64,000 bases of DNA from a virus (Duplodnaviria; Heunggongvirae; Uroviricota; Caudoviricetes), in the IMG/VR virus record IMGVR_UViG_3300012348_000120; one strand, written 5' to 3'. Under the pieces are notes generated by a model, which was given only the letters and a program-made list of their open reading frames with translations, ran no database searches and had not been told where the DNA came from. The translations under genes were made by a program, and so were the position numbers. Of this stretch, positions 4,514-64,000 are shown piece by piece (the first letter of the stretch is position 1; the number at the start of each line of letters is the position of its first letter).

Positions 4514-4532
4514 TGGTGATTCCTTTCTCATT

Positions 4533-8624: not shown

Positions 8625-9797
8625 TTACATTTTTGTTGTTGTGGACTCGTATGTCCGATTGTATTGATTATTTACTCGAATAAATGTTGTGCATTTACTG
8701 AGTTGTTTCAGAGTTGGTGCGCCAACATATGTGCAAGTTGATCGTATTCCTCCGAGAATGGTTTGAACCGTAGATGAAACATTTCCACGATACGGAACTA
8801 ATACTTCCCTGCCTTCACTTGCCCGATAGTCCTTGAGGCCACCAAAGTGTTTTTCATTTGCAGCATCAGAACTCATACCATAGAACTGAACAAACTTCTT
8901 TTCTTTAACAACTGGAATATATGCCCTGTATTCTTCTGGGCGTCCAGTATTTGTATATTCACCCGTGGCATACCATTTACTTATGATTTCGCCGCCGCCT
9001 TCATCATGGCCAGCAAGCATTCCACCGAGCATCACAAAATCGGCCCCTGCTGCAAAAGCCTTTGCAACATCACCAGCACAGACACAACCGCCATCAGCAA
9101 TAATATGTCCCCCAAGACCATGAGCGGCATCAGCACATTCGATGATGGCCGATAGTTGAGGATAACCAACCCCAGTTTGTATACGAGTAGTGCACACGCT
9201 GCCAGGGCCAATCCCAACTTTAACAATATCGGCTCCATTTAGAATTAACTCCTGTGTTTGATCTGCGGTTACAACGTTTCCTGCAATGATCACGATGTTT
9301 GGATAAATTTTACGAATGTTTTTCACATGCTCAACAAAATGCTGACTGTATCCATTCGCAACATCAATGCACAAGTATTTCAGCTTTTCCCCAACTCTGG
9401 CATAGACTTGAACAAATTTATCATAGTCGGAATTGCTAATGCCAATACTCATCGCTACATGTTGAGTTATACGTTCAATGTTTTGTGAAAAGAACTCAAC
9501 AAGTTCTTCCTTAGAATATGTCTTGACCAAGCAAGTAAATATGCCTTGACTGGACAGAACGTCTGCCATTTTAAATGTTCCAACGCCATCCATGTTTGCT
9601 GCCATAATCGGAACTCCCTTGTATTGAGAGTAGTGACGATCAAACACTTCATTCATAGTTTCGTTTGGACTTGAAACATAGTTTCGAAACGTATACGACC
9701 GTTCCAGACTTACATCTGAACGGCTTTTGAGTGTGCTTCGTTTTGGACGAATTAGAACATCACTATAATCAAGTAACACTTCATTTTCTATACGCAT
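8625..9797 (-). CDS. guaC: GMP reductase (IMPDH/GuaC family)
   Basis: N-terminus [29 protein letters not shown] is near-identical to bacterial GuaC; catalytic-Cys loop [11 protein letters not shown]. Confidence 0.85.
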
Positions 9798-10603: not shown

Positions 10604-11134
10604 TTATTCACTATCTTTGTAGAAAATATGATTGTCAATCACTTTCGTTTCTACGAAGTCTGAACTCCAATACGGATTTACGTAATCCGCATGATACATT
10701 GTTGCTCCACCAGTTGGGTCTGGAATTTGCCCATATGTATGGATTGCAACTTCTGCAACGAATTGTGCAAGCATCCAAGATGTTTTATCTTTTGGTTTGT
10801 CAGACATTCCGTCTTCTGTCCAAGAGAATTGGCCATCTTGCCAAACTACTTCACATACGCTTTTTGGGTAATTTTCATTTGTAACCCGATTGAGTGTCAC
10901 CCAAGCAACTGCCCGTTGCCCAAGAAACGATTGATTTCGTGCTTCAAAATAAATATTTTTTGCAAGACAATCTGTTTGTTTTTCAATATTCACTTGTTGA
11001 ATTTCGTTGTCGATAGACTTGGCCATAGCCACACGTCTTTCCGACTCTGCTTTTACCTCATGAACTCCGAGACCCGCAAGTCCTATTGCTACAGTAGCAT
11101 TCATGAGAAACGCTGCAAGGTTTAACCTTTTCAT
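10604..11134 (-). CDS. SleB-family cell-wall hydrolase with N-terminal signal or SAR-like segment (endolysin candidate)
   Basis: Hydrolase_2-like core (CLAKNIYFEARNQS...VAWVTLNRV...YPKSVCEVVWQDGQFSW); Gly/Ala-rich weakly hydrophobic N-terminus LAAFLMNATVAIGLAGLG. Confidence 0.75.
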   Translation of the reverse strand: MKRLNLAAFLMNATVAIGLAGLGVHEVKAESERRVAMAKSIDNEIQQVNIEKQTDCLAKNIYFEARNQSFLGQRAVAWVTLNRVTNENYPKSVCEVVWQDGQFSWTEDGMSDKPKDKTSWMLAQFVAEVAIHTYGQIPDPTGGATMYHADYVNPYWSSDFVETKVIDNHIFYKDSE

Positions 11135-11201: not shown

Positions 11202-11744
11202 TTATGCGAAAATTTTCAATATTTCGAGTTCTATATAATCTTTGTTTCGTTCAATATAAGCAACATCACCGATGGAACATCCTAATAGTTCTTTTCCAAC
11301 TGGTGATTTATGACTTATAACGCCCTCAGATGGATTACTTTCCATCTCTCCAAGGATTGTGTATGTTATAATTTTGTCAGTTGATAAGTTTTTCACAGTC
11401 ACACTAAGCCCAACTTCGACCTTACTATATTCCCCCTTTTTTTTCGCTGGTATGATAGTATATGTTTCTGCTACGATTTGGAGTTTTGCAATCTCCATAT
11501 CTAATCTCATCATTTCTTCCAGCGCCATAGAGAATTCTTCATTTTCTTCTATGCCGCCGTTTTCTCTGGCATCTTTAAGTTGCTCAGAAATTAGTGGTTT
11601 CTTTTTGGAAAGGATTTGAATCTTTTCCAAAATTTGTTTTCTTCCCTGTTCGGTAATAATGTCCCCACTCACTTCGTAGTATTCCTTGTTATTATTGTTG
11701 TGGTTATATTTATCGAAAACCACAAATGAAAGAGCATTATTCAC
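11202..11744 (-). CDS. GreA/GreB-family transcript-cleavage-factor-like protein
   Basis: coiled-coil N-domain with acidic tip plus C-terminal FKBP-like domain (VEVGLSVTVKNLSTDKIITYTILGE...SPVGKELLGCSIGDV). Confidence 0.65.
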   Translation of the reverse strand: MNNALSFVVFDKYNHNNNNKEYYEVSGDIITEQGRKQILEKIQILSKKKPLISEQLKDARENGGIEENEEFSMALEEMMRLDMEIAKLQIVAETYTIIPAKKKGEYSKVEVGLSVTVKNLSTDKIITYTILGEMESNPSEGVISHKSPVGKELLGCSIGDVAYIERNKDYIELEILKIFA

Positions 11745-12009
11745 TTTGCGTAACCTTATCGTTTATAATAGAGAAAACTTCAAACAAGTTGTCATCAATA
11801 TCATTTAGGTAATTGATGTGTGATTGAAATAGCATACTCAGTAAAATCATATTTTCTGCGGTCTGAATGTCATACGCATTATATTTGTATTTCATAAGTA
11901 TGGTTATAATGGATTTCATCAACTCTAATGACTCTATTTCATCTGTGCGAGTTGAAATAGAGTCATCTTTCTTGGAACGATAGTCTTCCAAATTTATTAT
12001 ATTACTCAT
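11737..12009 (-). CDS. hypothetical protein
   Basis: 90-aa ORF; ATGA coupling. Confidence 0.5.
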   Translation of the reverse strand: MSNIINLEDYRSKKDDSISTRTDEIESLELMKSIITILMKYKYNAYDIQTAENMILLSMLFQSHINYLNDIDDNLFEVFSIINDKVTQSE

Positions 12010-12545
12010 CGGATAGACAAACCTAATGTAGCAATAGCATCTTGGACAGACTTCGCTTGAAACTTCGCATCCTGCAACGGATCATGTTTCAAAAATGTGT
12101 ATTTCTTCCTTGGGTCATCTGGAAGAATACCAAACAATGTGGCACTATCTTTGATTCCCCAATAAGGCCAAGGAACGGGCGAGTCATATTGCTTGCACAT
12201 ATTCTGAACAATGCCAATATCCATCAGAATGCGTTGTGACCATACTGTGTCACAGCCAACATACCACTTCTTCAAGTGGCGTAGCATTTCTTGTGGTGAT
12301 ACACGATTGTCTGGCGAGAATGCCATTTCAATCGCATCTTTGTCCTGAGTAGACCACCAATCCAGCGTCTCAGTGCTTACGGTTCTACCAGTGCTTTCCT
12401 GACAGTCAATATCAACCCGAAAGAAAAACTCATCAAACGGGTCTTCTTTTGTATTCGGATTGAATTTTACTCCACCGATGGATAGAACCTGTGCGGTTGG
12501 AGACACGTCAAGTGTCTCCAAATCAATCATTGCATGTATTGTCAT
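12006..12545 (-). CDS. dexA: DnaQ-like 3'-5' exonuclease (T4 DexA-like)
   Basis: Exo I motif IDLETLD at the N-terminus, 179 aa. Confidence 0.7.
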   Translation of the reverse strand: MTIHAMIDLETLDVSPTAQVLSIGGVKFNPNTKEDPFDEFFFRVDIDCQESTGRTVSTETLDWWSTQDKDAIEMAFSPDNRVSPQEMLRHLKKWYVGCDTVWSQRILMDIGIVQNMCKQYDSPVPWPYWGIKDSATLFGILPDDPRKKYTFLKHDPLQDAKFQAKSVQDAIATLGLSIR

Positions 12546-13403: not shown

Positions 13404-13801
13404 AATCCTGACAACATTCTATAATGATCCCACGCCAACTTTACCGCTGGCTCCATATCTTTTTCTCTTAGGTTTATCTGATACCAGTGATCACGTATTG
13501 ACTGATTTGCTCTCACAAGCAAGTTGATCGGATTACCTGTATCGCGAACCACTATAACACCATCTTGATACAGTGTCAAGCACAAATGATAAACTTCTTC
13601 AAAATCAAATAGGTGTAACACATTGTTTCCTTTTGATAGATTGACAACCATCGGATCAACTTGACCATCATACCAGTGAGTAAACGAATCCATATTTTTT
13701 ATGTTTACTTCATGTGCGATTATACAGTAAACATCGTTGATGTTTACTTTTTTTAGTAGTATGTCGCTGACACAATACGAAAGTTTTGTTCCGAGTAACA
13801 T
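13394..13801 (-). CDS. hypothetical protein, paralog B of a tandem pair
   Basis: same length class and shared C-terminal motif with CDS 13008..13403. Confidence 0.5.
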   Translation of the reverse strand: MLLGTKLSYCVSDILLKKVNINDVYCIIAHEVNIKNMDSFTHWYDGQVDPMVVNLSKGNNVLHLFDFEEVYHLCLTLYQDGVIVVRDTGNPINLLVRANQSIRDHWYQINLREKDMEPAVKLAWDHYRMLSGLCK

Positions 13802-14520
13802 TATAGCTTTCTTAGTTTGTTATTTACTTCTATCACTTTTTCAAGGATTTCACTGTTGCTGAAGTTCAGAAAGGCTTCTGTATCCTTTGGAAAGCAGTAA
13901 CCACCAAATCCCAACCCACCTTCATCATTTGGTGCCATCATATGACTTGGACCGATGTTTGGGAATTGAGATAGAATGTTTACCATAGAGTAAAAATTAG
14001 CTTCTGGAACAAGGGAATATATTTCATGAAAAAAGGCAACCTTCGTTGCAAGCCATACGTTATGCATATACTTTACCATACTTGCGGTATGCCGATCAGT
14101 TTCCATAATTTTGGCATCAATGTAAGAAAACACATGCTTCCAGTAAAATAGCTGAGAGTGGTCCCCACCAAGAACCATAATCTGTTGGTTCTTGAAATCC
14201 TCATAAGCATGAGCCGCCCGTAAAAACTCTGGATAGTAACTCACGTTATTTGGATATAGTGCGATAAGATCAGGAGGAACAGTGCTTTTCAGCAATATCG
14301 GAATATCACCAAGTTTTTCTATGATGAACCGTATTAGAGAATCGTCACATTTTCCATCTACTGTTGGAGTAGGAAGGCATATAATAGCAGACTGAAAGTT
14401 TGAAAAACTTGAAAGGTCTGTATCAAGTTTTGGGTCAACTCGCCCAACTGTATGTCTATTTTTTTCTAGGCTTGTTGCAACAGTTTCACCAACAAACCCA
14501 CATCCGATTACTAATATCAT
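13801..14520 (-). CDS. nucleotide-sugar dehydrogenase-like protein (UDP-glucose/GDP-mannose dehydrogenase family) lacking the C-terminal sugar-nucleotide-binding domain
   Basis: Rossmann start MILVIGCGFVGETVA, ICLPTP, PEFLRAAHAYEDF, catalytic-Cys motif GFGGYCFPKDTEAF; only 239 aa. Confidence 0.7.
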   Translation of the reverse strand: MILVIGCGFVGETVATSLEKNRHTVGRVDPKLDTDLSSFSNFQSAIICLPTPTVDGKCDDSLIRFIIEKLGDIPILLKSTVPPDLIALYPNNVSYYPEFLRAAHAYEDFKNQQIMVLGGDHSQLFYWKHVFSYIDAKIMETDRHTASMVKYMHNVWLATKVAFFHEIYSLVPEANFYSMVNILSQFPNIGPSHMMAPNDEGGLGFGGYCFPKDTEAFLNFSNSEILEKVIEVNNKLRKL

Positions 14521-25820: not shown

Positions 25821-26870
25821 TCAGTCCCCGCCTTTCAGAAGGAACTGATTGCTGATCGTCTTGAAACTGAAACTTGGGTCTTCGTTGCATTTCCACACAA
25901 GACCCTCGCGAACCTTGTGAACGATGCTTGGACCTTCAGCAAGAGCAAGACCTTCTTCCACATTACGTGGCGCTGGCATTGCCGTTCCGAACACTGGAAC
26001 GTGTTCCAGTTTCAATTGTTTACATACTTCCCGCCGTGCTGTGGGACCAACGTATAGATGGCTGAACATATTGAACACGTCAAACACAAAGAACTGATGT
26101 TCTTTGAACCCTTCACGGTTTCCCTGAATGCCCGGACCCATAAATTCACCTTGGAAAGCAAACCCATCGGGAATGCTGTCACCAATCTTGAGGGCCATAG
26201 CAACAAGAGTATTGTCTTTGTTTTCTTCGTTGATTTTCAGTTCAAGGTTCCGACTGCAAACACGAAGTTCACCTTCCCAACGGAAGATAGTGCAACTGGT
26301 TCCATCCAGTTTCATTGTTACTTCGTAAGTAACATCACCTTTGTCCTGAATCTCTTGGAAACAGTTCTGAATGCGTTCCTGATCAGTTTTAGGAATCAGG
26401 CTGGTGGGAAACAGACCACGAACTTGACCAGCAAGTTGAGCAGGGATTTCTGGTTCCCACTTTTGGATGTTGAGAGCATCAGTTACGTCATCGTCCAGTG
26501 AAACTTGTCGATGGAACCCAATCCCATCTTCATGCTTGAAAGCCAGAATACATGGGAACTTGTCGCGGTCACCGTGCCATTCTACAGGAAGCAGTAGCCC
26601 CTGAGAAACTTGACCACGCAGTTTGACTGTCCGAAGACGTTCACCTTTCACCCCATTGTATTCACGGGGTTCTTGTCCTTTTGACAGGAACGCAGCAAGT
26701 TCAGTTGGCACCCAAGAGTCAATTTCAAGGTAAACGGCAAGGTCACCAACTTGAAACTCGTCTTTCTTGACCACAACTTTCCAGCCATCAACTGTGGCCA
26801 CGACAATAGCATCAGCACCTTCAATGGGCTGAATGTCGGAAATCCGACGAATAGAGGCAAGTTTACGCAT
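25821..26870 (-). CDS. ATP-dependent RNA ligase, DraRnl/Rnl5-like (N-terminal OB-like domain plus nucleotidyltransferase domain)
   Basis: motif I KLDGTS (Lys about 187), motif III FQGEFMGPG, motif IV EGLVWK, motif V SFKTISNQFLLK; start trimmed to MRKLASIRR after gggagaaaaaata. Confidence 0.8.
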   Translation of the reverse strand: MRKLASIRRISDIQPIEGADAIVVATVDGWKVVVKKDEFQVGDLAVYLEIDSWVPTELAAFLSKGQEPREYNGVKGERLRTVKLRGQVSQGLLLPVEWHGDRDKFPCILAFKHEDGIGFHRQVSLDDDVTDALNIQKWEPEIPAQLAGQVRGLFPTSLIPKTDQERIQNCFQEIQDKGDVTYEVTMKLDGTSCTIFRWEGELRVCSRNLELKINEENKDNTLVAMALKIGDSIPDGFAFQGEFMGPGIQGNREGFKEHQFFVFDVFNMFSHLYVGPTARREVCKQLKLEHVPVFGTAMPAPRNVEEGLALAEGPSIVHKVREGLVWKCNEDPSFSFKTISNQFLLKGGD

Positions 26871-27229
26871 TATTTTTTCTCCCGAATAAAGGCAGTGAGT
26901 GGAGTTCCGTATCCACATTGTAAGTCCGAATGAAGATTTCCACCGTTGATGGAATCGTTTAGATAGTCACTTTCAGTATAGCCATACCGATCAATACCAT
27001 CGCCAATCCCAACGTATTCACCGTCAGCATCAAAGGCAGAGTATCCGTAACTGTCAAAACCTTCGCTGTCGTAGTCGCCAAACATGGTTTTTTCATCATA
27101 TTCGATTCCATCCTCATACACTTCTTGATTCCAATCGGCAGGAACTTCGCCATAGCAGTTGTATTTGAACATTTCCCATCCGCTTTCATTCGCGTGTGGG
27201 CATAGCGGCGAATATTTTCCAGTGCTCAT
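26870..27229 (-). CDS. acidic Tyr/Gly/Asp-rich protein
   Basis: 119-aa ORF. Confidence 0.45.
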   Translation of the reverse strand: MSTGKYSPLCPHANESGWEMFKYNCYGEVPADWNQEVYEDGIEYDEKTMFGDYDSEGFDSYGYSAFDADGEYVGIGDGIDRYGYTESDYLNDSINGGNLHSDLQCGYGTPLTAFIREKK

Positions 27230-31301: not shown

Positions 31302-32696
31302 TTACTGTTTGGTAGGAGTTCCGATAGTTGGATCAACACTCAGTTGTTTTGCAGAGTTCAGCATCATAAGTTGCATGAACTGGTCAACCGTGCCAAGTGC
31401 ATTTCCAGAAGTCCCATCACCACCACCAGCAATCACAGTAGAAGGAACGTTGATCTTAGAGGCAGCATCCGCCCAAACACGCTGTGCTTCAACCCAAGCA
31501 TCAAGTTTCTGTTGTAGAGCACCGTCAGCTTCAAGAATGGCTTGCTTTGCGTAGGCTTCTGCATCAGCAGCAACAGTCACAGATTGTGCGTCAACCTTTG
31601 CACGTTCCAGATTGATTTCAGAAGTTTCTTGTGCAATTCGGGCTTCTTCGCGAACACGTTCAGCTTCGATCAGAGCAAGTTTTTTCGTGGTTTCAGCGTT
31701 TGTGGTCTTTTCAATCTGTTCCACTTTTGCTTCTGCTTGACGCTTGGCAATGTCAGTTTCACCTTGTTGGATTGCAAGCAACCGCTGTTCTTCTTGTTCA
31801 AGACGCTGTTCACGAGCAACTACGCGACGAGATGCAGCTTTCTTACGTTCACCAATCTGACGCTCGTATTCATCATCGGGGTCAATGTTTTCAAGAATTG
31901 CAGAAGATACAACAACACCGATTTCCGCGAAGTCATGTGGGGTTCGGATGTCATTGCCGCTTGCGTCTGTCACTTTTTCCATCATAACACGACGAACTTC
32001 AGTGTCACCAACTTCCGAAGTGTCGGCAGCAACATCGCTACTTGATGGAGCAGCACGGCTAGGAATTACGCCACCAGCTTGGTTGAATGAAACTTGACGA
32101 ACCTGAGCACGACCCTTTTCAACAGTATCTTTGAACTCGCTCTTGAACTGGTCACGCTTACCACCAGAGTAGTATTCTTCCATTGTGAACATGTTAGATA
32201 CTGAGTCAAGTGATGCAGTAACGGCAGGTTTCAGAGTAGTGCTAATTAGACGTTCAGGACTACGGAAGGTTCGTGCCATCGTCAAGAATTGTTCTTGATC
32301 TTGTGGGATCGCAAAACGAGTGGTCTGAGTAACATCACCTGTCCAGTTGTCTGCTAGGCGAACACGATATGGACCCGTGACAGAACTGCCATCCGCTTCG
32401 ATATCAATCGTGTTTGCGACTGTGATGAAGTGAGGCCATGCTGTGGAAGTCCCCCAACCAACAAAGAACCAACCTGTTTCACAGACTGCGGTTTCGGTTC
32501 CGAAAATGCTTCGCGTATGCTGGCAGTATCCAGCGTCATTGTAACTTACCGCGCCAAGACCGATGATCGCGACACCAAATACACCAATTGCCGATGCGAC
32601 AATTGTTTTTACTTTTCGTAGTTCGGGAATGAGAGGAACCGCCTTGATTGCAATTGCAGCAATGATAAAGACGATGCCTAGAATGAGTCCAGTCAT
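31302..32696 (-). CDS. SPFH/band-7 (prohibitin/HflK-like) membrane protein with long coiled-coil C-terminal region
   Basis: N-terminal TM helix, SPFH-like core, then a long Ala/Glu/Gln-rich coiled coil. Confidence 0.7.
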   Translation of the reverse strand: MTGLILGIVFIIAAIAIKAVPLIPELRKVKTIVASAIGVFGVAIIGLGAVSYNDAGYCQHTRSIFGTETAVCETGWFFVGWGTSTAWPHFITVANTIDIEADGSSVTGPYRVRLADNWTGDVTQTTRFAIPQDQEQFLTMARTFRSPERLISTTLKPAVTASLDSVSNMFTMEEYYSGGKRDQFKSEFKDTVEKGRAQVRQVSFNQAGGVIPSRAAPSSSDVAADTSEVGDTEVRRVMMEKVTDASGNDIRTPHDFAEIGVVVSSAILENIDPDDEYERQIGERKKAASRRVVAREQRLEQEEQRLLAIQQGETDIAKRQAEAKVEQIEKTTNAETTKKLALIEAERVREEARIAQETSEINLERAKVDAQSVTVAADAEAYAKQAILEADGALQQKLDAWVEAQRVWADAASKINVPSTVIAGGGDGTSGNALGTVDQFMQLMMLNSAKQLSVDPTIGTPTKQ

Positions 32697-42051: not shown

Positions 42052-42473
42052 TGTAATGCAAACCTCGCAGCGTCAGTTTCATTTTCAAATGCGACAAATA
42101 CAGCTTCGCCGCCTCTCCCATCAAAGTAGTCAAATGTTCCATCGGAACGAGTTCTATGCCAATGCACTCTATACTTGCCCTCGCAGTTATGTTTGCACCA
42201 TATTCTAAACTCAAACGTTCCGTCTGAAAAAAATCCATTATCATACGAAGGCTGTCGCATTACAATTCCAAATGGAACTTCAAACAGAATGTAACCAGAA
42301 TAAAACTCTTGGACTGTCTTAGCATTTACATTCAAGTTGGGGTCACGAATCATATGATATTCATACCAAGTCTTGCATCCAGAATCTTCAAGAACCTTGC
42401 GGATTCTTCTTTTTCTAAGTCTTGCCCTGATACGAAAAATACCAAACATAGTTATTGCTTGCGTTCCCACCAC
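42042..42473 (-). CDS. hypothetical protein
   Basis: 143-aa ORF. Confidence 0.5.
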   Translation of the reverse strand: MVGTQAITMFGIFRIRARLRKRRIRKVLEDSGCKTWYEYHMIRDPNLNVNAKTVQEFYSGYILFEVPFGIVMRQPSYDNGFFSDGTFEFRIWCKHNCEGKYRVHWHRTRSDGTFDYFDGRGGEAVFVAFENETDAARFALQWL

Positions 42474-43018
42474 TGTTTCCAGACTTTGCGTGACACAGTG
42501 TCATACAAATCTTCGTATCCAGTCTCTACTGGATTATCATTGCCGCCTTTCTTGATATGAAAGAACGCCAACGCACCTTTATTTTCCTTGCAGAAGTTCT
42601 CAATCGGTATGAGTTCATCTGCAATTTTCATCAGTTCTTCAGAACCAGTAAAGAATTCTCCTTGCCAATTCAGTCTTAGGCCATAACAATACACGTTGAT
42701 ATTCCAATTGTCAACAAGATTCGCTAAATCCCATACTTGTTCTTTTGTAAGAAACTGTGCCTCATCAACCATCAAAAAGTCTGGTTTGGTGGCGTGTGAT
42801 TTTAGAATCTTTGCACTCGGTAAGTCAGATGGTCCGACAATCAAACACTCATGCTCAATACCAAGGCGAGTTGTAATGGCAGTTGATCTATCATCAACCG
42901 CTGGCTTCATTAGAACCGTGCTAAATCCTTTTTGTGTCAATGTATGATTTCTGGTAAGAACCGAAAGGCTCTTACCAGAATTCATTGACGAATATACAAA
43001 CGTCAGTTTAGTCATCAA
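42452..43018 (-). CDS. tk: thymidine kinase
   Basis: P-loop FVYSSMNSGKS, FLMVDEAQF, C-terminal zinc-ribbon-like region. Confidence 0.85.
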   Translation of the reverse strand: MMTKLTFVYSSMNSGKSLSVLTRNHTLTQKGFSTVLMKPAVDDRSTAITTRLGIEHECLIVGPSDLPSAKILKSHATKPDFLMVDEAQFLTKEQVWDLANLVDNWNINVYCYGLRLNWQGEFFTGSEELMKIADELIPIENFCKENKGALAFFHIKKGGNDNPVETGYEDLYDTVSRKVWKQWWERKQ

Positions 43019-49455: not shown

Positions 49456-49869
49456 TTATAGCTTTACTTTTCCCTGTTCTATAAGAATTTTTCTATTTGC
49501 TGCATGCGCATCGGCTACTAACTTTTTATTTTCGCCGTTATATGGAACTGCCAAATGATTTTCAAGTAGGTGTTGACTGAGCAAAACTCCATCCACGCGA
49601 ATGTCTCCAAGTATACGCCCATACTTTCCTCTAAACTCCATTGAAACAAGAGTACATTCCTTTCCAACTGGAAGCATTTCTGTCACACATTTTTTGGCCA
49701 GCAGTCCAAATACTTTTTCTTGGGCATCTAATGTTTTGCTTTCTGGTGTATCAATTCCCTGAATGCGAATACGTTCTGATTGCATCCACACTCCGAACCC
49801 CAAGTCAATGTTCACATCAACTGTGTCGCCATCTATTACTTCTACGATCACGCATCTATACTCATACAT
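49456..49869 (-). CDS. staphylococcal-nuclease (SNase/thermonuclease)-like nuclease
   Basis: VIDGDTVDV...IRIQGIDTPE...GKYGRILGDI matches SNase fold motifs. Confidence 0.65.
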   Translation of the reverse strand: MYEYRCVIVEVIDGDTVDVNIDLGFGVWMQSERIRIQGIDTPESKTLDAQEKVFGLLAKKCVTEMLPVGKECTLVSMEFRGKYGRILGDIRVDGVLLSQHLLENHLAVPYNGENKKLVADAHAANRKILIEQGKVKL

Positions 49870-50867
49870 TATTCAATATCCTTCTTGCTTACTTGTTTCC
49901 ATTCACCATAAATTCCATGATCTGGCAAGTATAGCATACGGTCGTTCCAAGATATTTCTGTTCCACTTTCAATTATTGCATCAATATTTTCTACGTAACT
50001 ATTCATGTAATGATCTGGAAGTTCTTTTCCAACTTCATAGAACGATAAACTCTCTTCAGATGCAAACAGCCAAAAACTATTCACGCCGTAATTCAAACTG
50101 TCTGGCTCATCAATATAGCAGTATTTTCCATTTTCCAATAGCTTTATCATAGTACCAAGATGTGCGTAACGATTTCTGTGTGTTCCAGTAGGAGGAACTA
50201 ATGCAACTACATCAGTTTCGTTTACGATGCGAGTAAGTTTTATTTTACCTCTCATCACACGAGTTCCTATTGAATCTGTGACTTTTGGCTGTCCAAAGGT
50301 AATACACTCAGCGATGTTGAAATTACTGTAATCTAAATACCAAGACACAATAAGGGCTTGTGCCGCACCAAGGCTGTGACCAGTAACATATATGCTGTAT
50401 GTTTTGTCTAAGCGATTTAGCAAATCATCCGCAATTAGTTCTGCGGTTCTATGAAATCCAGTATGCAGATAAATTCCCAAACGAAAACTTTTGTCTTTTA
50501 GAAAGTTTATGTCTTGTAATGCGTTGTGTGAATTATTTGTTCCACGAATTGAAATGTAATACTTTTTTGTGGCATCGTCTTTCAATACGATATATTTGAT
50601 GCTATTGATTTCATGTATGTAAATTTCTGAGAAGGTTTCATACTTTTTGCGTATAACATCGTTGTCTCTTTTGTATGCGTATGCAGCAAGAACAGCGAAC
50701 CAACGAATGTTGACCCAATCGATCTCACGTGATCGTTCAACGTTCTGAACGAACGTTTCGTCCAGTCTGTATCTTTTTACGATTGCTCTGCGAATAAGTT
50801 TTGCAAAATTGGCAATAAGCCATTTTTGAAATACATGCCGTAGCAAGTATGAAATAATAATACTCAT
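49869..50867 (-). CDS. class-3 (fungal-type) lipase-like alpha/beta hydrolase with N-terminal hydrophobic segment
   Basis: ISIRGT motif and nucleophile elbow VTGHSLGAAQA. Confidence 0.7.
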   Translation of the reverse strand: MSIIISYLLRHVFQKWLIANFAKLIRRAIVKRYRLDETFVQNVERSREIDWVNIRWFAVLAAYAYKRDNDVIRKKYETFSEIYIHEINSIKYIVLKDDATKKYYISIRGTNNSHNALQDINFLKDKSFRLGIYLHTGFHRTAELIADDLLNRLDKTYSIYVTGHSLGAAQALIVSWYLDYSNFNIAECITFGQPKVTDSIGTRVMRGKIKLTRIVNETDVVALVPPTGTHRNRYAHLGTMIKLLENGKYCYIDEPDSLNYGVNSFWLFASEESLSFYEVGKELPDHYMNSYVENIDAIIESGTEISWNDRMLYLPDHGIYGEWKQVSKKDIE

Positions 50868-51764: not shown

Positions 51765-51815
51765 TGATGTTCTCCAACTGGTATTTGATGTATTTATCAA
51801 AAAAAACGCAGCCAA

Positions 51816-51850
51816 TAAAGGCTGCGTTGAGTAGGAAAACCAAATGAAAT
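51816..51850 (-). terminator. intrinsic terminator
   Basis: gene-sense caacgcagcctttattggctgcgtttttttt. Confidence 0.65.
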
Positions 51851-51859
51851 TATTATATA

Positions 51860-52102
51860 TTATGCCATGAAGCCAGTTCGTTTACGTGGATCGCCATAGT
51901 GTTCACGGGCGTTCACGCGAATGAACTTTTTGTTAGTTTCATTCTTGTTTGGGTTTTCAATGGTAATCACTACGTTCTTACCAGCTTTCCATGCCAGAAG
52001 CTGGTTCATAATCCGATCCGCAGGATGACGAGTTGCGGTCTTCATTGACCCAATACGTTCACCCTTGGAAGTGTAATGCTTACCAGATGCTTTCTTACCC
52101 AT
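51860..52102 (-). CDS. small basic hypothetical protein
   Basis: 80-aa Lys/Arg-rich ORF. Confidence 0.5.
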   Translation of the reverse strand: MGKKASGKHYTSKGERIGSMKTATRHPADRIMNQLLAWKAGKNVVITIENPNKNETNKKFIRVNAREHYGDPRKRTGFMA

Positions 52103-52103
52103 T

Positions 52104-52619
52104 TTATAGTCCTTCTTTGTTGATTTTGTATGGAATGATCTTTACGTCTTCAAACTTTTGACCAAACGTATCGATCCAGTGTTTCAGTCTATTTTCAGCT
52201 TCTTTGTGTGTTTCAAAACCCCACTCTTGGTGAATATCTCCCCAAGAGCCATACCATCTAAACTGCAATCTCCACCTGTCCACTAATTCAACATCAGTGT
52301 TTGGTTTCAATTTTAGCTGTCGTTCAAGTTCAGCAACACGTTCTTTGTAGAACTTTGTTTCATCAGAATTTGAATATACCACAGATTCGGCTTTGATGTC
52401 AAGTCTTTTTTCTAATACTTTTGAATTCAATGGAAGTGCGATATTTGGATTTTCAGTTGCGGATGTTTGAATATATTCTGGTGGATCACAGACGGTGTAT
52501 GGCATAACTGCCATGTTTACATAACCCTTATGTCCATCCTCATCCGAAACTTCCCATACGTTTGGAGTTGTGAGTTCAAACCCACGGCGATGACAAGTTG
52601 TGTATACTTTCATAACCAA
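52104..52619 (-). CDS. hypothetical protein
   Basis: 171-aa ORF. Confidence 0.5.
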   Translation of the reverse strand: MVMKVYTTCHRRGFELTTPNVWEVSDEDGHKGYVNMAVMPYTVCDPPEYIQTSATENPNIALPLNSKVLEKRLDIKAESVVYSNSDETKFYKERVAELERQLKLKPNTDVELVDRWRLQFRWYGSWGDIHQEWGFETHKEAENRLKHWIDTFGQKFEDVKIIPYKINKEGL

Positions 52620-53329
52620 GCATCCAATATGGGCAATAGTTTTTGTGTAAGGTTTGCAGCTTTTTCACTGCTTTCGTCTACAAACGTATCAAAATCAAAG
52701 TGAGACGTATTTCCAGCCAAGTCACTCAAAACACGAATGACAATGAATGGCTTGCTCCAGTTACAGCAAACTTGTGCGATTGCCGCACCTTCCATTTCAA
52801 CTGCGTCTGCGCCGAATTTGTTTCGTAGTTGTTCTCTGGTTGTGCTACAAGCCACATAGGTGTCGCCTGTCAAGACCTTGCCAAAGTAAACATCATGGTC
52901 TGGTCCGAGAAGATGGCGAATGGTATTCTTCATTGCGGTTGGCATTTTGTAAGAGACGTTTTTATCATCTTCGGTATACCCAGGAAAACTCCCAGGAATC
53001 GCATTGAAGAAAACACTTTTTGACATTGTGCCGTAATCATGCTGCACAAGTTCATCTGCAATGATGACTTGTCCTATATTGAGTTTTGGATTTATTCCAC
53101 CAGCAACGCCGCTAAAAATAATCCCATCACAGTTGTAGTGGCCAAGAAGCAAAGAAGTGGTCATTGCAGCGTTTACTTTTCCAATACCGCACTCTGCGGC
53201 AATTACGTCAACGCCGTTGATTGTTCCAAATTGGAATATCTTGTTTATTATAGATTCTGTTCTTGGTGCAGCGTCCCAAGATAATTTAGAATATTCTTCT
53301 GGAATTGCGGATATTACGCCAATTGGCAT
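52610..53329 (-). CDS. mtnN: 5'-methylthioadenosine/S-adenosylhomocysteine nucleosidase
   Basis: GVISAIPEE..., SGVAGGINP, AVEMEGAAIAQVC, VIRVLSDLAGN match Pfs/MtnN. Confidence 0.8.
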   Translation of the reverse strand: MPIGVISAIPEEYSKLSWDAAPRTESIINKIFQFGTINGVDVIAAECGIGKVNAAMTTSLLLGHYNCDGIIFSGVAGGINPKLNIGQVIIADELVQHDYGTMSKSVFFNAIPGSFPGYTEDDKNVSYKMPTAMKNTIRHLLGPDHDVYFGKVLTGDTYVACSTTREQLRNKFGADAVEMEGAAIAQVCCNWSKPFIVIRVLSDLAGNTSHFDFDTFVDESSEKAANLTQKLLPILDAWL

Positions 53330-53631
53330 TAGGCTGGCTCCACCGTAGATTTTAGTGGATGGTCATGAACTTTGGCTACATGAGAAACATCTGAAACCTT
53401 TTGTTCTGCGATTTCCAAGTTATACATTCCCACAATTGCTTTGCCTTCTTCGTGAATCTTCATTGTAAGATCAAAAGAAGTTTGAGGATCATGATGGAAG
53501 ATTTCAATCAATACATCAACGACGAAATCCATTGGAGTTGTGTCATCATTATGCATAATGACATAATAGTTAAGAGGTTCAGTAATTTCTACTTCAGTTC
53601 GACTTGATGATTTTACTTCTGCTATTGACAT
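53329..53631 (-). CDS. clpS: ClpS ATP-dependent Clp protease adaptor
   Basis: YYVIMHNDDTTPMDFVVDVL...GKAIVGMY matches the ClpS core. Confidence 0.8.
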   Translation of the reverse strand: MSIAEVKSSSRTEVEITEPLNYYVIMHNDDTTPMDFVVDVLIEIFHHDPQTSFDLTMKIHEEGKAIVGMYNLEIAEQKVSDVSHVAKVHDHPLKSTVEPA

Positions 53632-53680
53632 TGTTTCTATCCAGTAAAGGTGAGGGGCTTATTCAGCCCCTCTGTTAAAA

Positions 53681-54118
53681 TTATACTTGAGTGATCTCGA
53701 TGCGCTTTGGCTGTAGTTCTGGTGGAACAACTCTGGTTAGATGAATGTTCAACATTCCCAACTCCAATGTTGCATTAGAGATTTCGATATGATCCGCAAG
53801 AGTAAACTCTCTACGGAATGCCCGACCTGCAATACCTTTGTGTAGGTAATTTACTTCTTCCTCACCCGATGGCGGTGTTCCTTCAATTCGCAATATGTTT
53901 TTATCGCGAGTGATTTCAAGGTTGTCCATTCCAAATCCAGCCACGGCCAGAGTAACCATATACTCATTTTCATTGATCTGTGCAACATTATATGGAGGGT
54001 ATCCCCCACTGTTGACTCCACTCAGTTGCGCGTCAAGCGCACTTAGTAACTTGTCAAAACCAATTGTTGCACTGTATAGGTGTGGAATAGATGAAGATGT
54101 AATTTTTCGTTGTGTCAT
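53681..54118 (-). CDS. small heat-shock protein (Hsp20/alpha-crystallin family; IbpA-like)
   Basis: alpha-crystallin domain (YNVAQINENEYMVTLAVAGF...ILRIEG...AFRREFTL); start trimmed to MTQRK after AAGGAGA. Confidence 0.75.
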   Translation of the reverse strand: MTQRKITSSSIPHLYSATIGFDKLLSALDAQLSGVNSGGYPPYNVAQINENEYMVTLAVAGFGMDNLEITRDKNILRIEGTPPSGEEEVNYLHKGIAGRAFRREFTLADHIEISNATLELGMLNIHLTRVVPPELQPKRIEITQV

Positions 54119-54169
54119 TTTTTTCTCCTTAATAAGCAAGAATATCGTGACCCATTATGGCGTCACAGT

Positions 54170-54215
54170 AAAGTTCAAATCATTATGAAACTTTACACCA
54201 TCAATATAACACTTT
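54170..54215 (-). promoter_or_regulatory. sigma70-type promoter with about 80-nt structured leader upstream of hsp20
   Basis: gene-sense TTGACAatcaacataaaaagtgtTATATT, then hairpin gtgacgccataatgggtcac. Confidence 0.5.
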
Positions 54216-54235
54216 TTATGTTGATTGTCAATAGT

Positions 54236-54505
54236 TTAGAGACCAATTTTTTCAGAAAAAAGTTCAATACTTTTTGCTGGTCCGACTTGACTTGGCAATC
54301 CCCCATACTCATCCATGTATGACTGAATGACAGACTTATACCATAGTTGAGAATTGTGGTGTGCCAGTTTATTGAACTTTGAAAGTCCATCATTTGTCCC
54401 GTCCATTGTCAATAATGCACGGGTAGATTCTTTTTGCAATGTTCTCAAATCCAGACTGTCTAAGTTGATCAGTCGTTTCTCATCTGACGTAGCTTCTTCT
54501 GCCAT
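54236..54505 (-). CDS. hypothetical protein
   Basis: 89-aa ORF. Confidence 0.45.
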   Translation of the reverse strand: MAEEATSDEKRLINLDSLDLRTLQKESTRALLTMDGTNDGLSKFNKLAHHNSQLWYKSVIQSYMDEYGGLPSQVGPAKSIELFSEKIGL

Positions 54506-54717
54506 CTTTTTTTGCCCGCATCTTTATCTTTTCTGCGTTTCTCACTTCCACCAACATATTCTTGGCGGTCGCGATATTCTTGAATGATGTTTTCATCAAC
54601 GCATAGTTTTTTGAACCTACGGATTGCACGTTCAACATTTCCATTCTTCACAGTGACAGTTGTCCCTGATTTAATGTGTCGCTCTTGGTCGTTGCCTTTT
54701 ATATAATGTTTAGCCAT
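54469..54717 (-). CDS. rpsU: ribosomal protein S21 homolog
   Basis: VKNGNVERAIRRFKKLCVDENIIQEYRDRQEY...KRRKDKDAGKKRWQKKL parallels bacterial bS21. Confidence 0.65.
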   Translation of the reverse strand: MAKHYIKGNDQERHIKSGTTVTVKNGNVERAIRRFKKLCVDENIIQEYRDRQEYVGGSEKRRKDKDAGKKRWQKKLRQMRND

Positions 54718-55234
54718 CTTTTGTTATAACACCTGTAATTCGATTTCCCGATTGTTTAAGTTCTTGTTCATATTTGAAGTTTGAAAGAAGTGATGCAATA
54801 TCATCTATCATGCTTGCAATCACATCAGACCCTTTCGTGATCTCCCGACCACGAAGTGGAATTGTAATTTTTACTTTTGCATTAGCTTCAAGGAACTTCA
54901 TAACCTGTTTCATTTTGATTTCAAGGTCATGAATACCGATTCCCGGTCTGATCTTTACCTCTTTTACTTCAACAACATTCTGTCGTGCTTTTTTCTCAGC
55001 ATCTTTCTGACGCTTTTTTTGCTCGTAGGTATATTTAGCTACATCAACAATTCGTGCAACAGGAGGGTTGCTTTGTAGTGTGATTACAACTAAATCCAGA
55101 TTTTTATTATAGGCAAGACTTCTTGCTTTTGATGTTTCCATAACACCAAGTTGAGTTCCATCATCATCGATGACTCTGACCTCAGTGCTTTTAATATACT
55201 CGTTGTAGACGATTGTGTTGGCGGAATTAGTCAT
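54710..55234 (-). CDS. infC: translation initiation factor IF-3 homolog
   Basis: N- and C-domains align with E. coli IF3 ([14 protein letters not shown]...LDLVVI...PPVARIVD...[14 protein letters not shown]...[12 protein letters not shown]); start trimmed to MTNSANT overlapping the clpX stop. Confidence 0.75.
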
Positions 55235-56471
55235 TTTGAGTATCGGAAAGTCCTTGCTCGTCATTGAATACCATAATAGGTTTGTTGCTTCCTTCGATAA
55301 ATTCTTTGGTGATAATCACCTTTTTCAGTCCTTCTTTTGCAAGAGTTGGTAATTTAAATTGTAGTTGTAGTAGAGATTTTTCAATAACACTACGAAGACC
55401 ACGCGCACCAGTTTTGTTATTTATTGCTTGCTTCGCAACAGACTTGATTGCATCATCTGTAAATTCAAGTTCAACATTATCAAGGCTGAACAAGCGAATA
55501 AATTGGCTTACGATGTTGTTCTTTGGCGCAGTCATTACATGAATAAGCTGTTCCTCTGACAAGTTGTCCAGTCCAACAATGATAGGAAAGCGGCCCATAA
55601 ATTCTGGAATAAGACCGAATTTCATAAGGTCTTGTGCCATAATGTTCTGCCGAACATTTACTTCATCATTTTCAGATTTTACACTTGCATTGAAGCCAAT
55701 GCCACTCTTTTTGTTGACACGGCGCTCAATTATCTTATCTACGCCAACGAATGCCCCGCCGACAATGAATAGAATGTTAGTGGTATTTACCTCAATCATA
55801 TCTTGGCCAGGATGCTTTCTGCCGCCGCCAGGGGGGACACGAACCTTGGTGCCTTCAACGATTTTCAGAAGTGCTTGCTGGACGCCTTCACCAGAAACAT
55901 CTTTTGTAATCGACACGTTTTCGCCTTTCTTGGCTTTCTTGTCAATTTCATCAATGTATACAATTCCACGCTCTGCTTTTTCAATATCAAAGTCAGCAGC
56001 AATAAGTAGACGCTGAACGACATTTTCAACATCTTCTCCAACATACCCACTTTCAGTGAGTGTAGTGGCGTCCACTTGTGCGAATGGGACATCCAATATT
56101 TTAGCAACTGTTTTTGCGATCAGTGTTTTGCCTGTGCCAGACGGACCCAAAAGAATGACGTTAGATTTCTCAATCTCAATGTCACTATTTGTATGATTGA
56201 TACGCTTGTAATGATTATATACGGCCACACTCAATACTTCTTTTGCTTCATCTTGACCAATGATGTATTGGTCAAGATGTGCTTTTATTTCTTCTGGTGT
56301 GGGGAAACTGTCAGTAGATTTGTGCTTTTCCGACTTTTTCTGATGAATAATGTCATAGCATAAATCAATACACTCATCACATATATAAATTCCTGGCCCT
56401 GCAATTAGCGTGTTGACTTCGGATTTGTTCTTGCCGCAAAACGAACAAGAGTAGTTTTTATTATCAGACAT
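55227..56471 (-). CDS. clpX: ClpX ATP-dependent unfoldase (full length, with C4 zinc-binding domain and IGF loop)
   Basis: CSFCGK...CDEC ZBD, Walker A GPSGTGKT, pore loop GYVG, IGF docking tripeptide, sensor motifs. Confidence 0.9.
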
Positions 56472-56480: not shown

Positions 56481-57917
56481 TTATTTGCGAATGTAATCTA
56501 ACCATCCGTTAGGTTTTCTTGGTGTTTTGATAATCGTAGGCTCTGGTGTTGCCTCCGTTTTATTTATCACAGTATATGACTTTTCACTGGTAGTTAGGTC
56601 ATTATGCGTAATTTCTTCATCAATAACAGTTTGATTATCACTTATATCCTCTTGATTGTCAAGAGGTTTTTCAGTCTTTTCTTCGTTAGTTTGACGTGAA
56701 AAGATTGCTTCAAAGATTTCCTCTTGGCCTCTGTCATCATGACGATGCTTCCAAGAGAAGTTTGCTGCAATCAACAACAAAACTGCCAGTGGATCAAACA
56801 CAAAAATGAATACAATGATTAGCCAACGGACTGCAACGTCAATTGTGCTTTTCTCTGTATTCCCATATACTAATTCTGCAATGTATTTTATCGGCCCAAC
56901 TTCTGCTTCTAATTTACGAATTTCTGTTTCCAGCATAAACTTTTCTTCAACCATTTTATTCAGTTCATCAGTCTCAGTTTCAATCTGAGTTTGAACCTTT
57001 TGAACTTCAGCCGTATTGTCAGCAGTAGAAACAGTTGTAAGTTGTTGACGTAAGTTGTCAATGGTTGTTTGTGATGCTGCAACCTCTTGTTCTGCCAATG
57101 AACGAATACGTGCAATCTCTGCACGTGCTGCATCAATTTTTGACTGGTCTGCGTTTTGCTGTGCTTTTGCTATTGAATCAAGTAAAGCGTTTTTCTCACT
57201 GATTTTTTGTTGTTTGAAACGATCAACTGCCGCAGTTGTTTGTGACCCATAGTTTCCATCAGCTTCAACGCCGACCATTGCTTGTAATTGAGCAATACTA
57301 TTAGATTCAATATAGCTTTGTATCTGTGCCAACTCAGCGTCAATTTGCTCAACACTACGTTGATAGGTCTGAACTTCTGGACTTGCGCCACTCTGTTCTC
57401 TTTCGATTATAGCATTTTGCTCATCAATCGCTGGTTGAATACGTGCATAAGCCTGATCTTTTCTTGCCTGTTCAGCATCAATCTGTGCTTGTATACTTGC
57501 AGTGTTGTCACTTGTCTGTGATTGCAACTCTTTTGATTTTTCTATAAGAGATGCAATCTCTCGTTCTTTATTGCTAATTTCTGAAGCAAACTGTTCAACT
57601 TGCGCACTACCTTGTTCCATTTGTGCAGATTGTTCTAAGTGAGCCTTAGACAAAAAGCCAAAAATGCCCATCGATGTGATGAACATCAAGATGACTGTCG
57701 CCGCAGTCAAATACGACTTCAATAGAAATGGTGCAATATTCCAGTTTCTATAAACCCAAGATGCAGATACTAACTTGCCCACTTCAAGCGATCCCGCCAT
57801 CAATGCAACAGGAATCGCAGCAGAAGAAAATATAGCAATCAACCCTGCGATAGAAAACCAAGCCGCAATGATTGCAATAGCAATAGCGACAATAAATGTA
57901 ATAATTGGAAATAACAT
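56481..57917 (-). CDS. membrane protein with N-terminal TM helices, long Gln/Ala-rich coiled coil, PG_binding_1-like motif and C-terminal TM helix
   Basis: VGVEADGNYGSQTTAAVDRFKQQ matches a peptidoglycan-binding-domain consensus; start trimmed to MLFPIITFIV after gagaggggg. Confidence 0.55.
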   Translation of the reverse strand: MLFPIITFIVAIAIAIIAAWFSIAGLIAIFSSAAIPVALMAGSLEVGKLVSASWVYRNWNIAPFLLKSYLTAATVILMFITSMGIFGFLSKAHLEQSAQMEQGSAQVEQFASEISNKEREIASLIEKSKELQSQTSDNTASIQAQIDAEQARKDQAYARIQPAIDEQNAIIEREQSGASPEVQTYQRSVEQIDAELAQIQSYIESNSIAQLQAMVGVEADGNYGSQTTAAVDRFKQQKISEKNALLDSIAKAQQNADQSKIDAARAEIARIRSLAEQEVAASQTTIDNLRQQLTTVSTADNTAEVQKVQTQIETETDELNKMVEEKFMLETEIRKLEAEVGPIKYIAELVYGNTEKSTIDVAVRWLIIVFIFVFDPLAVLLLIAANFSWKHRHDDRGQEEIFEAIFSRQTNEEKTEKPLDNQEDISDNQTVIDEEITHNDLTTSEKSYTVINKTEATPEPTIIKTPRKPNGWLDYIRK

Positions 57918-63990: not shown

Positions 63991-64000
63991 AAAAAAAGAG

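Follow-up and report, generated by a model that had tools for sequence, protein, structure and literature searches.

Why would a bacteriophage carry, side by side on one strand, genes for ClpX and ClpS, a small heat-shock protein (sHsp), initiation factor IF3 and ribosomal protein bS21? The question is raised by a 64,000-nucleotide stretch of viral DNA (IMG/VR record IMGVR_UViG_3300012348_000120, Caudoviricetes; hereafter the window). Open reading frame (ORF) calls and profile searches assign positions 53329–56471 of the minus strand, in this order, to ClpX, IF3, bS21, an IbpA-like sHsp of the Hsp20 family and ClpS. Together with two conserved proteins that we call up492 and orf89, the full module reads up492, ClpX, IF3, bS21, orf89, Hsp20, ClpS (Table 1). 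Judged by its relatives, the window copy is not unique: the block is common and conserved among phages, and the form seen here is the fullest. On balance, and with moderate confidence, we favour a joint reading: what this phage carries would be its version of an old block, passed down vertically in a broad lineage of large phages, and its most likely role would be the supply of parts for translation initiation and protein quality control.

Gene families and motifs

The original prediction, made from the DNA letters, had listed five host-type genes arranged head-to-tail. All five assignments are correct, as are their coordinates, strand and order, and profile hidden Markov model searches for ClpX, ClpS, IF3_N/IF3_C, Ribosomal_S21 and HSP20 each scored above the Pfam cut-off. 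What that list missed is a sixth conserved gene, orf89, between S21 and Hsp20.

ClpX matches the NCBIfam equivalog NF003745 with 595.6 bits (cut-off 359) and TIGR00382 with 572 bits (cut-off 370.75). Its zinc finger scores 66.9 bits with PF06689, and residues 6–404 align with Escherichia coli ClpX (8e91_A) at 510 bits. The Cys4 zinc finger, Walker A and B, GYVG, RKH, IGF and the GARGLR sensor are all retained in this alignment, which bears out the earlier statement that the zinc domain, GYVG loop and IGF tripeptide are intact.

The IF3 homolog has both domains (IF3_N, 91.9 bits; IF3_C, 69.1 bits; TIGR00168, 148 bits against a cut-off of 60), connected by a basic linker in the alignment to E. 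coli IF3. The E. coli residues that we take to serve 30S binding and fidelity are Y75, R99, D106, K110, R112, R116, R129, R131 and R133. The phage protein retains Y75, R99, D106, K110, R131 and R133, and differs by R112K, R116K and R129P. An upstream ATG at 55264, which would give an ORF of 184 residues, was considered as the start and rejected, as public gene calls give 174 residues and relatives start near the 174-residue position. Bacterial infC has an unusual AUU start codon, the basis of its autoregulation. The window gene starts with ATG and the AUU-type start is absent, so the phage IF3 should escape start-codon-based autoregulation of the infC type. Among 63 distinct phage loci, 48 offer an in-frame ATG as a candidate start; the other 15 have only GTG or TTG.

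The bS21 homolog scores 48.8 bits with PF01165 (cut-off 27) and 51.3 bits with TIGR00030 (cut-off 28.95). It has a basic and aromatic N-terminal extension of ∼18–24 residues, and alignments to PDB entries start at query residues 19–25. In this it resembles the S21 proteins of huge phages, for which a survey reported IF3 and S21 with N-terminal extensions (Al-Shayeb 2020, PMC7162821).

The sHsp is recognized by Pfam HSP20 (PF00011, alpha-crystallin domain) with 54.7 bits (cut-off 20.8) and falls below the cut-off of the IbpA equivalog NF008013 (136.8 against 212 bits); by these scores it is IbpA-like, not an IbpA ortholog. A C-terminal I-x-I is the oligomerization motif of sHsps, and the phage protein, ending in KRIEITQV, has it. 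Its gene has a good Shine-Dalgarno (SD) sequence. ClpS reaches 98.7 bits with PF02617 (cut-off 23) and lies below the NCBIfam equivalog cut-offs (best 87.4 against 143 bits).

Conserved gene order in a phage lineage

We scanned IMG/VR from two anchors. The ClpS-anchored scan took the best 80 of 210 relatives, and the 62 with at least 5 kb upstream were counted; the IF3-anchored scan took 80 of 93 relatives, of which 62 had adequate flanks and were counted. Upstream of ClpS on the same strand we found Hsp20 in 59 of these 62 loci, up492 in 45, S21 in 42, ClpX in 31, IF3 in 25, orf89 in 20 and ClpP in 3. Around IF3 the counts were 57 for up492, 56 for S21, 54 for ClpS, 46 for Hsp20 and 44 for ClpX, again out of 62; because the samples were drawn with lineage-derived patterns, all these proportions describe this lineage and not phages at large. 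The order ClpP, up492, ClpX, IF3, S21, orf89, Hsp20, ClpS was broken in none of the 80 ClpS-anchored loci, and all listed patterns were colinear in the IF3-anchored loci.

As a control we took 80 bacterial clpX loci, the best matches to the window ClpX (52–59% identity; Clostridia, Actinomycetota, Bdellovibrionota and others). There, clpP lay nearby in 67, and IF3, S21, Hsp20 and ClpS were found within 10 kb of clpX in none of the 80. The arrangement is far beyond chance. Over 100 viral contigs repeat the block in colinear form, and not one of these bacterial loci does.

The module also appears to be old. In a simple neighbour-joining tree, 26 distinct phage ClpX (from the window clade, Phosso, Atu_ph07, PA5oct and other IMG/VR clades) split from 80 bacterial ClpX, chosen by similarity to the window protein, in 48 of 50 bootstraps. 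Since the phage proteins all lie on one side of that split, the tree fits one old acquisition of ClpX, then vertical descent with differential loss. Purifying selection acts on the whole module: between the window and its closest relative, L007, the ratio of non-synonymous to synonymous divergence (dN/dS) is 0.013–0.115 for every module gene, with dS near 1–2 (ClpX 0.034, bS21 0.022, up492 0.10).

Is the stretch phage DNA at all? It consists of dense small minus-strand ORFs and is uniform in composition. Among the scanned window ORFs no capsid or terminase gene was identified, so the phage assignment is made by indirect, mutually consistent lines: PHROG matches (tRNA nucleotidyltransferase phrog_2244, RNA ligase phrog_968, phrog_2087 and phrog_11908), tRNA genes, IMG/VR relatives and large matching contigs. 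An identical ClpX is found on a 356-kb NCBI contig (CACUWB010000001.1, GCA_902725615.1), on which some other genes differ by one residue; the window also matches Logan run ERR3489834. Further contigs of 185–356 kb encode module proteins that are the same or nearly so. In the phage collection the window has no relative at the nucleotide level; at the protein level, a phage-specific window gene has its relatives in T4-like and Rak2-like large phages.

These observations also bear on the suspicion that the five genes reflect a recent, non-functional capture from a host, or bacterial DNA misjoined to a phage contig. The five families are typically cellular, and the window ClpX is 53–59% identical to many bacterial ClpX. 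We nevertheless give this explanation next to no credence. It is refuted by the recurrence of the same block, both in several ∼350-kb assemblies that are independent of each other and in over 100 contigs of IMG/VR, the lack of the linkage at all 80 bacterial clpX loci, the separate position of phage ClpX, dN/dS values of 0.01–0.12, and GC content and strand bias that are uniform across the window.

Two of the conserved members belong to no recognized family. The small helical protein orf89 matches no family of Pfam or PHROGs, and neither PDB nor BFVD offers a fold that resembles it. It is 89 residues long here and 78–80 in most relatives; the window and its closest relative share a 10-residue N-terminal extension. 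Its exact start is uncertain, because the ORF, read from the listed ATG, shares its first 37 nt with the end of S21. Window-clade relatives have it at the same place with 64–76% amino acid identity, and in the more distant of them its identity exceeds that of IF3, S21, Hsp20 and ClpS. A profile of orf89 finds 1615 metagenomic proteins, including some from Tara, all unannotated and none with a Pfam domain. The second protein, up492, ends 9 nt upstream of clpX, and gave sub-threshold Pfam matches only and no PHROG match. Its same-strand position upstream in both scans marks it as a conserved upstream member of the module.

Predicted expression units

How the block is read was examined with consensus matches and fold predictions, which define every promoter, hairpin and terminator named here. 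The original prediction spoke of one operon, partly coupled in translation. Coupling at the first junctions is apparent: ClpX and IF3 overlap by 8 nt (ATGACTAA), so that the IF3 ATG does lie within the end of clpX as had been claimed; IF3 and S21 likewise overlap by 8 nt (ATGGCTAA), and overlaps connect ClpX, IF3, S21 and orf89 throughout. A single operon probably does not follow. Between orf89 and Hsp20 lies a gap of 117 nt with a promoter-like site inside, and between Hsp20 and ClpS one of 49 nt with a hairpin inside; because of these, the block as a whole is probably not one operon with tight coupling. Hsp20 looks like an insulated unit, preceded by a promoter-like site and a leader of its own and followed, here and in relatives, by a GC-rich hairpin. 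Such a hairpin is predicted right behind the Hsp20 stop in most of 49 distinct related loci, many with a U-run, and in the window it is probably a terminator or attenuator. Further on, ClpS, an MTA/SAH nucleosidase, orf169 and orf80 are connected by overlaps or 1-nt gaps.

We propose at least three expression units. The first would comprise (up492)-ClpX-IF3-S21-orf89, coupled through overlapping start and stop codons; the second, the sHsp gene alone, its ribosome-binding site masked by the leader described below and its end set by the hairpin; and the third, ClpS, the MTA/SAH nucleosidase, orf169 and orf80.

Promoter-like signals vary among relatives. Where the window clade has a sigma-70-like match, many relatives (L012–L017, L043, L063, L075, L084 and others) have TATAAATA-like sequences resembling T4-type late promoters, upstream of both the Hsp20 leader and ClpS. 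Because these signals differ, expression timing may differ between clades. A second sigma-70-like match in the window, TTGACA-17-GATAAT (56634–56662), lies within the 3' end of up492, ∼160 nt before clpX. In L012 and L015–L017 the Hsp20–ClpS interval contains a sigma-70-like match (TTGACA-17-TATAAT) with a strong terminator hairpin ∼40 nt downstream, a pair that could specify a very short RNA or could be a mere overlap of signals.

A ROSE-like leader in front of Hsp20

ROSE-like RNA thermometers precede sHsp genes, consist of two to four hairpins, and have a U(U/C)GCU segment that forms, within the 3'-proximal hairpin, an imperfect pairing with the SD sequence (PMC3669281; PMC4166951). The window Hsp20 leader is predicted to fold into three hairpins (−19.7 kcal/mol, z = −2.2) and carries UCUUGCUUAUUAAGGAGA as the segment with the SD-pairing motif. 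Across 51 distinct Hsp20 leaders, U(U/C)GCU followed by AGGAG occurs in 49 (pattern N3–12; observed spacers 3–7 nt), while the sequence around these two elements has diverged. Upstream, hairpin A is predicted in nearly all 51 (mean z = −2.4), with a stem that is clade-specific in sequence yet paired.

Covariation points the same way. We counted 98 double-change cells, compared with 26±6.6 in shuffles (0/500), and in the register-fitted alignment 92.6% of cells are paired, compared with 19–54% in slid controls; these counts lean towards structure, because the alignment was fitted to that structure. RNAalifold, run on a plain MAFFT alignment of the leaders, returned no structure, the stems being out of register.

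The likeness to the bacterial ROSE-like thermometers of ibpA and hspA thus lies in the position before an sHsp gene, the two to three hairpins and the imperfect U(U/C)GCU–SD pairing. Unlike them, the window element is on a phage, and its promoter-like site is sigma-70-like (TATAAATA-like in many relatives) rather than sigma-32-like. The Rfam ROSE models also do not match it: a 141-nt leader gave nothing even at E≤10, and ten related loci gave nothing at the gathering score. Because no Rfam model matches, we call the leader ROSE-like in design only, not a member of the curated family, and regard it as a candidate thermometer. Membership of the freshwater-2 motif was considered and rejected, the Rfam match being sub-threshold (17.8 against 49.9 bits).

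ClpX and the source of ClpP

A ClpX with an intact IGF loop raises the question of its ClpP. A tblastn search with the phage ClpP of PA5oct (E≤10) found no ClpP-like sequence in the 64-kb window, in agreement with the earlier statement that none is encoded there. ClpA was not found in the window either, because the only ORF above 500 residues is a subtilase. In the window-clade contigs the 10 kb around the module showed no clpP either, nor did ∼8 kb added beyond one window end. In profile scans for ClpP, the best 80 of at least 600 matches in IMG/VR include no long window-clade contig, and none of the best 120 of at least 8000 candidates in the protein collection lies on a ∼350-kb contig.

Phage-type ClpP is abundant in metagenomes, with those at least 8000 candidates better than 1e-30. 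Layouts with clpP include ClpP-up492-ClpX-IF3-S21-Hsp20-ClpS and a compact ClpX-Hsp20-ClpS-ClpP.

Could the phage ClpX capture host ClpP, with IF3 and bS21 re-specifying the choice of start sites and leaders towards phage mRNAs? We hold this to be rather unlikely. The intact IGF and pore loops and the missing clpP, in the window and within 10 kb of the module in its clade, would fit such a capture. In this clade host ClpP may be hijacked, but the case is weakened, because the absence concerns 64 kb of a ∼350-kb genome, about 18% of it, and because distant carriers encode a ClpP of their own: PA5oct does, and metagenomic relatives have a phage clpP inside or beside the block (L095, L097, L105, L063, L065, L070 and L193). 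The translational half of the proposal draws on the shared place of IF3 and bS21 in 30S initiation, on the basic and aromatic extension of S21, as in huge phages (PMC7162821), and on the ATG start that would remove autoregulation of IF3. It is countered by the 30S-contact residues of IF3, which are mostly ordinary, and by the sequences themselves, in which no selectivity for phage leaders is apparent.

ClpS is linked to Hsp20 in gene order

The N-degron pocket of E. coli ClpS is, we take it, formed by N34, D35, D36, T38, M40 and H66, and its contacts with the ClpA N-domain by E79, E82 and K84. All nine residues are retained in the phage protein, with Y37T and M62T as differences in the same alignment. 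The original prediction found the pairing of ClpS with ClpX odd. The pairing dissolves on inspection: with Hsp20 upstream of ClpS in 59 of 62 loci (median gap 122 nt over all 71 Hsp20–ClpS pairs), ClpS is tied to Hsp20 and not to ClpX, and its ClpA-contact residues are kept. The partners of ClpS would then be the sHsp and an enzyme of the ClpA type, not ClpX. Their near-universal pairing further suggests that Hsp20 and ClpS act on the same substrates, for which aggregation-prone proteins from the mass synthesis of virion parts are a likely candidate. ClpS has been reported to shift ClpAP towards aggregated proteins (summarized in the Atu_ph07 paper, PMC6102473).

A review of jumbo phages, which lists ClpS, ClpX, IF3 and Hsp20 separately, proposes that phage ClpS works with host ClpAP by bringing targets to it (PMC7824862). 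That proposal is one ground for reading the module as a means of host takeover or counter-defence, in which ClpS and ClpX send chosen host proteins such as defence proteins or regulators to Clp proteases, or ClpS blocks the turnover of antitoxins by ClpA and so silences abortive-infection toxins. The conserved pocket and ClpA contacts of ClpS would suit it, as would the patchy occurrence of ClpX and IF3 across clades, which resembles that of accessory conflict genes. We consider it improbable all the same. Fast-evolving counter-defence genes are unlike the core of Hsp20-ClpS, S21 and up492, which across deep divergence is stable, colinear and low in dN/dS; IF3, bS21 and a thermometer-gated sHsp are left unexplained; and Pfam and PHROGs give the module genes no link to defence (a PADLOC scan of them was not made).

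The MTA/SAH nucleosidase behind ClpS scores 199.8 bits with NF004079 (cut-off 169) and is translationally coupled to it at a TAATG junction. It adjoins ClpS only in the closest relatives; in other clades it is 5–7 kb away or absent.

Related blocks in cultured phages

Partial forms of the block occur in phages that have been isolated. Pseudomonas phage PA5oct (MK797984; EST35_0255–0260) has ClpX, S21 (its start overlapping the end of clpX), sHsp and ClpS in the same order on one strand, with identities to the window proteins of 45% for ClpX, 33% for Hsp20 and 38% for ClpS. It differs from the window in lacking IF3 and orf89, in having hypothetical and PTPS/QueD-like genes between S21 and Hsp20, and in carrying, within the next 9 kb downstream, FtsH and a ClpP of its own; a homolog of up492 was not found in it. 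The PA5oct-like phages MIJ3, Callisto, Paride and others match at ClpS (tblastn).

In the Rak2-like/Asteriusvirus group, Vibrio phage 2.275.O has IF3-S21-ClpS-KTSC and E. coli phage 121Q has IF3-ClpS-KTSC, each on one strand. Both lack ClpX and Hsp20; a P-loop protein upstream of IF3 in 2.275.O was considered as ClpX and rejected as a Dda-type helicase. The ClpS-like proteins of these two phages (2.275.O, L005 9992–10348; 121Q, L025 6512–7057) have the pocket histidine equivalent to E. coli H66 replaced and bear C-terminal or N-terminal extensions. They may no longer read N-degrons.

A third arrangement is found in Agrobacterium phage Atu_ph07 and Sinorhizobium phages Phosso and AP-J-162, in which ClpX is directly followed by IF3, and S21, Hsp20 and ClpS are scattered 7–16 kb or more away. 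The ClpX proteins of Atu_ph07 and Phosso group with that of the window. The genomes of this group also hold ClpA, ClpB and ClpP (PMC6102473), and the adjacency of clpX and IF3 in AP-J-162 was noted in a 2024 paper (PMC11242549).

Each gene family is thus already known in jumbo phages, and there is no new kind of gene here. PHROG entries exist for all five families (the best ClpX match, phrog_4339, has no function label), and the phage collection returned 102 records for IF3 and 19 for ClpS. Mizuno 2019 (PMC6375957) and Al-Shayeb 2020 (PMC7162821) dealt with the same gene families and handled the genes individually; the linkage to Clp proteins and sHsp is not described there. The original prediction held the block to be undescribed. 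That goes too far for its parts, since four of the five genes are annotated in the same order in PA5oct and Paride, and the full block is common in IMG/VR. It stands for the unit itself: our literature search, which was incomplete, found no paper treating the linked genes as a unit, and the published phages with partial blocks come with no paper that we found testing the module. Within the limits of that search, three results appear to be new: that the block is a recognizable unit, that it contains the conserved gene orf89, and that it has a ROSE-like leader.

What comparison adds is that the genes make up a colinear, selected and apparently ancient block, spread over a wide lineage of large phages with cultured and clinically relevant members (PA5oct, Paride, 121Q-like phages). 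It holds two conserved proteins of unassigned function, and its sHsp leader would be a candidate for a phage-borne RNA thermometer. Carriers of the PA5oct type grow on laboratory hosts.

A proposed role for the module

The stable linkage of initiation factors with Clp and sHsp quality control suggests joint use during infection. We propose that the module gives the phage control over the supply of exchangeable or limiting parts for two linked processes in the infected cell, to the benefit of bulk phage protein synthesis that would be independent of host gene expression. The first process would be 30S initiation, with IF3 and bS21 both acting at the 30S platform; in favour of this, a pelagiphage bS21, unrelated to the window S21, has been shown to enter E. 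coli ribosomes (Mizuno 2019, PMC6375957). The second would be protein quality control. Here ClpX would team up with a ClpP, supplied by the host or encoded in another part of the phage genome, to dispose of specific targets and of proteins that are unfinished or tagged; the sHsp would keep hold of aggregating proteins, its synthesis gated at translation and, if the leader is a thermometer, responsive to temperature; and ClpS would steer a ClpA-type partner to N-degron or aggregated substrates, in keeping with the proposal that phage ClpS works with host ClpAP (PMC7824862).

Several points weigh against this account. The IMG/VR samples behind it were drawn with peptide patterns from this lineage and include near-duplicates (80 ClpS proteins, 61 of them distinct). 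About half of the ClpS-anchored loci lack ClpX and IF3 and, because module content varies in this way, no single combined activity can need all parts. The translation and proteostasis halves may be linked only by the timing of their expression and not by a common function. Two of the best-conserved members, orf89 and up492, are left unexplained by a supply role, and the Hsp20 leader matches no Rfam ROSE model (E≤10). In the pelagiphage study, the sole experimental test of a phage bS21, the ribosomes containing it were almost inactive in vitro (Mizuno 2019, PMC6375957). Finally, no paper with a test of the module was found in our incomplete search of the literature.

A different use for the same parts would be a start-up kit for hosts that are starved or dormant. 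Ribosomes lying idle or in hibernation would be split by IF3, free of autoregulation, and the extended bS21 would make 30S subunits competent for initiation again; proteolysis through ClpX and ClpS would clear stationary-phase proteins, and the thermometer-gated sHsp would handle the aggregates of dormant cells. Known substrates of ClpXP and ClpS/ClpAP include the stationary-phase protein Dps. Under this proposal, orf89 and up492 would be phage-specific components of that machinery. Carriers of the module abound in metagenomes from aquatic habitats (Tara among them), whose hosts are often limited by nutrients. Moreover, direct replication in deep-dormant P. aeruginosa is reported for the PA5oct-like phage Paride (PMC10761892), the one phage for which it has been shown, and Paride carries ClpX-S21-Hsp20-ClpS. 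If the proposal were true, the module in Paride would be causal for replication in dormant cells and not incidental. We think it doubtful: the Paride paper is silent on these genes (PMC10761892), many carriers infect fast-growing enterobacteria, as 121Q does, and the link is circumstantial and concerns one phage. The data are compatible with such a start-up role, as they are with selective reprogramming of initiation and with targeted proteolysis of host proteins; the supply of initiation and quality-control parts remains the reading that we prefer.

Other features of the window

The coordinates of the module and of the other features recognized in the window are collected in Table 1.

Table 1. 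Features of the 64,000-nt window, with the module and its signals first
Feature	Position	Strand	Basis or remark
up492, membrane protein with long coiled coil, 492 aa	56481..57959	−	N-terminal transmembrane helices and C-terminal transmembrane helix
ClpX, 414 aa, full length, with N-terminal zinc-binding domain and IGF loop	55227..56471	−	NF003745; Pfam zf-C4_ClpX and AAA_2
IF3 (infC homolog), 174 aa, both domains and lysine-rich linker, ATG start	54710..55234	−	IF3_N, IF3_C, TIGR00168
bS21 homolog, 82 aa, ATG within IF3 end	54469..54717	−	PF01165, TIGR00030
orf89, small helical protein, 89 aa	54236..54505	−	Conserved ORF between S21 and Hsp20
Sigma-70-like promoter match TTGACA-17-TATATT, TG upstream	54203..54231	−	11/12 consensus positions; consensus match only
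Hsp20 leader, ROSE-like candidate RNA thermometer	54119..54200	−	Folding, motif, covariation
Leader hairpin A, covarying stem with (U/C)-G-C-(C/U)...(G/A)-G-G core (window: (U/C)-G-C-C...G-G-G), unpaired G	∼54146-54167	−	Folding
Leader hairpin B, UCUUGCU imperfectly paired with SD AAGGAG, one G unpaired	∼54123-54142	−	Folding
IbpA-like sHsp (Hsp20), 145 aa, C-terminal I-E-I	53681..54118	−	PF00011, phrog_432
GC-rich hairpin GAGGGGCU-GAAUA-AGCCCCUC directly 3' of Hsp20 stop	53652..53672	−	Fold prediction
ClpS, 100 aa	53329..53631	−	PF02617
MTA/SAH nucleosidase (MtnN/Pfs)	52610..53329	−	NF004079
orf169 and orf80, coupled, function unassigned, end of unit	51860..52613	−	ATGA overlap, 1-nt gap; orf80 is phrog_23239
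Intrinsic terminator-like hairpin and T-run, AACGCAGCC-TTTATT-GGCTGCGTT-TTTTTT	51805..51828	−	Ends the unit of ClpS, MTA/SAH nucleosidase, orf169 and orf80
Three tRNA genes: Met (CAT), Leu (TAA), Arg (TCT)	163-634	−	
CCA-adding tRNA nucleotidyltransferase	3263-4531		
IMP dehydrogenase/GMP reductase family protein	8625-9797	−	
SleB-type cell-wall hydrolase	10604-11134	−	
GreA/GreB-type transcript cleavage factor homolog	11202-11744	−	GreA_GreB C-terminal 73 bits, N-terminal 35.6 bits
Rv2179c-like 3'-5' exoribonuclease	12006-12545	−	
Short UDP-glucose dehydrogenase-like ORF	13801-14520	−	
RNA ligase	25821-26918		
SPFH/Band 7 protein	31302-32696	−	phrog_11908
Subtilase-family protease, 888 aa	33977-36643	−	
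Thymidine kinase	42452-43018	−	
Staphylococcal-nuclease-like protein	49456-49869	−	
Class 3 lipase	49869-50867	−	

The GreA/GreB homolog is a further host-type gene-expression factor on this phage, and with the subtilase the phage has a second protease that bears no relation to Clp. On the matching contig from run ERR3489834, ∼7 kb past window position 64000, lies a gene for an alternative oxidase (PF01786; L346 219–818).

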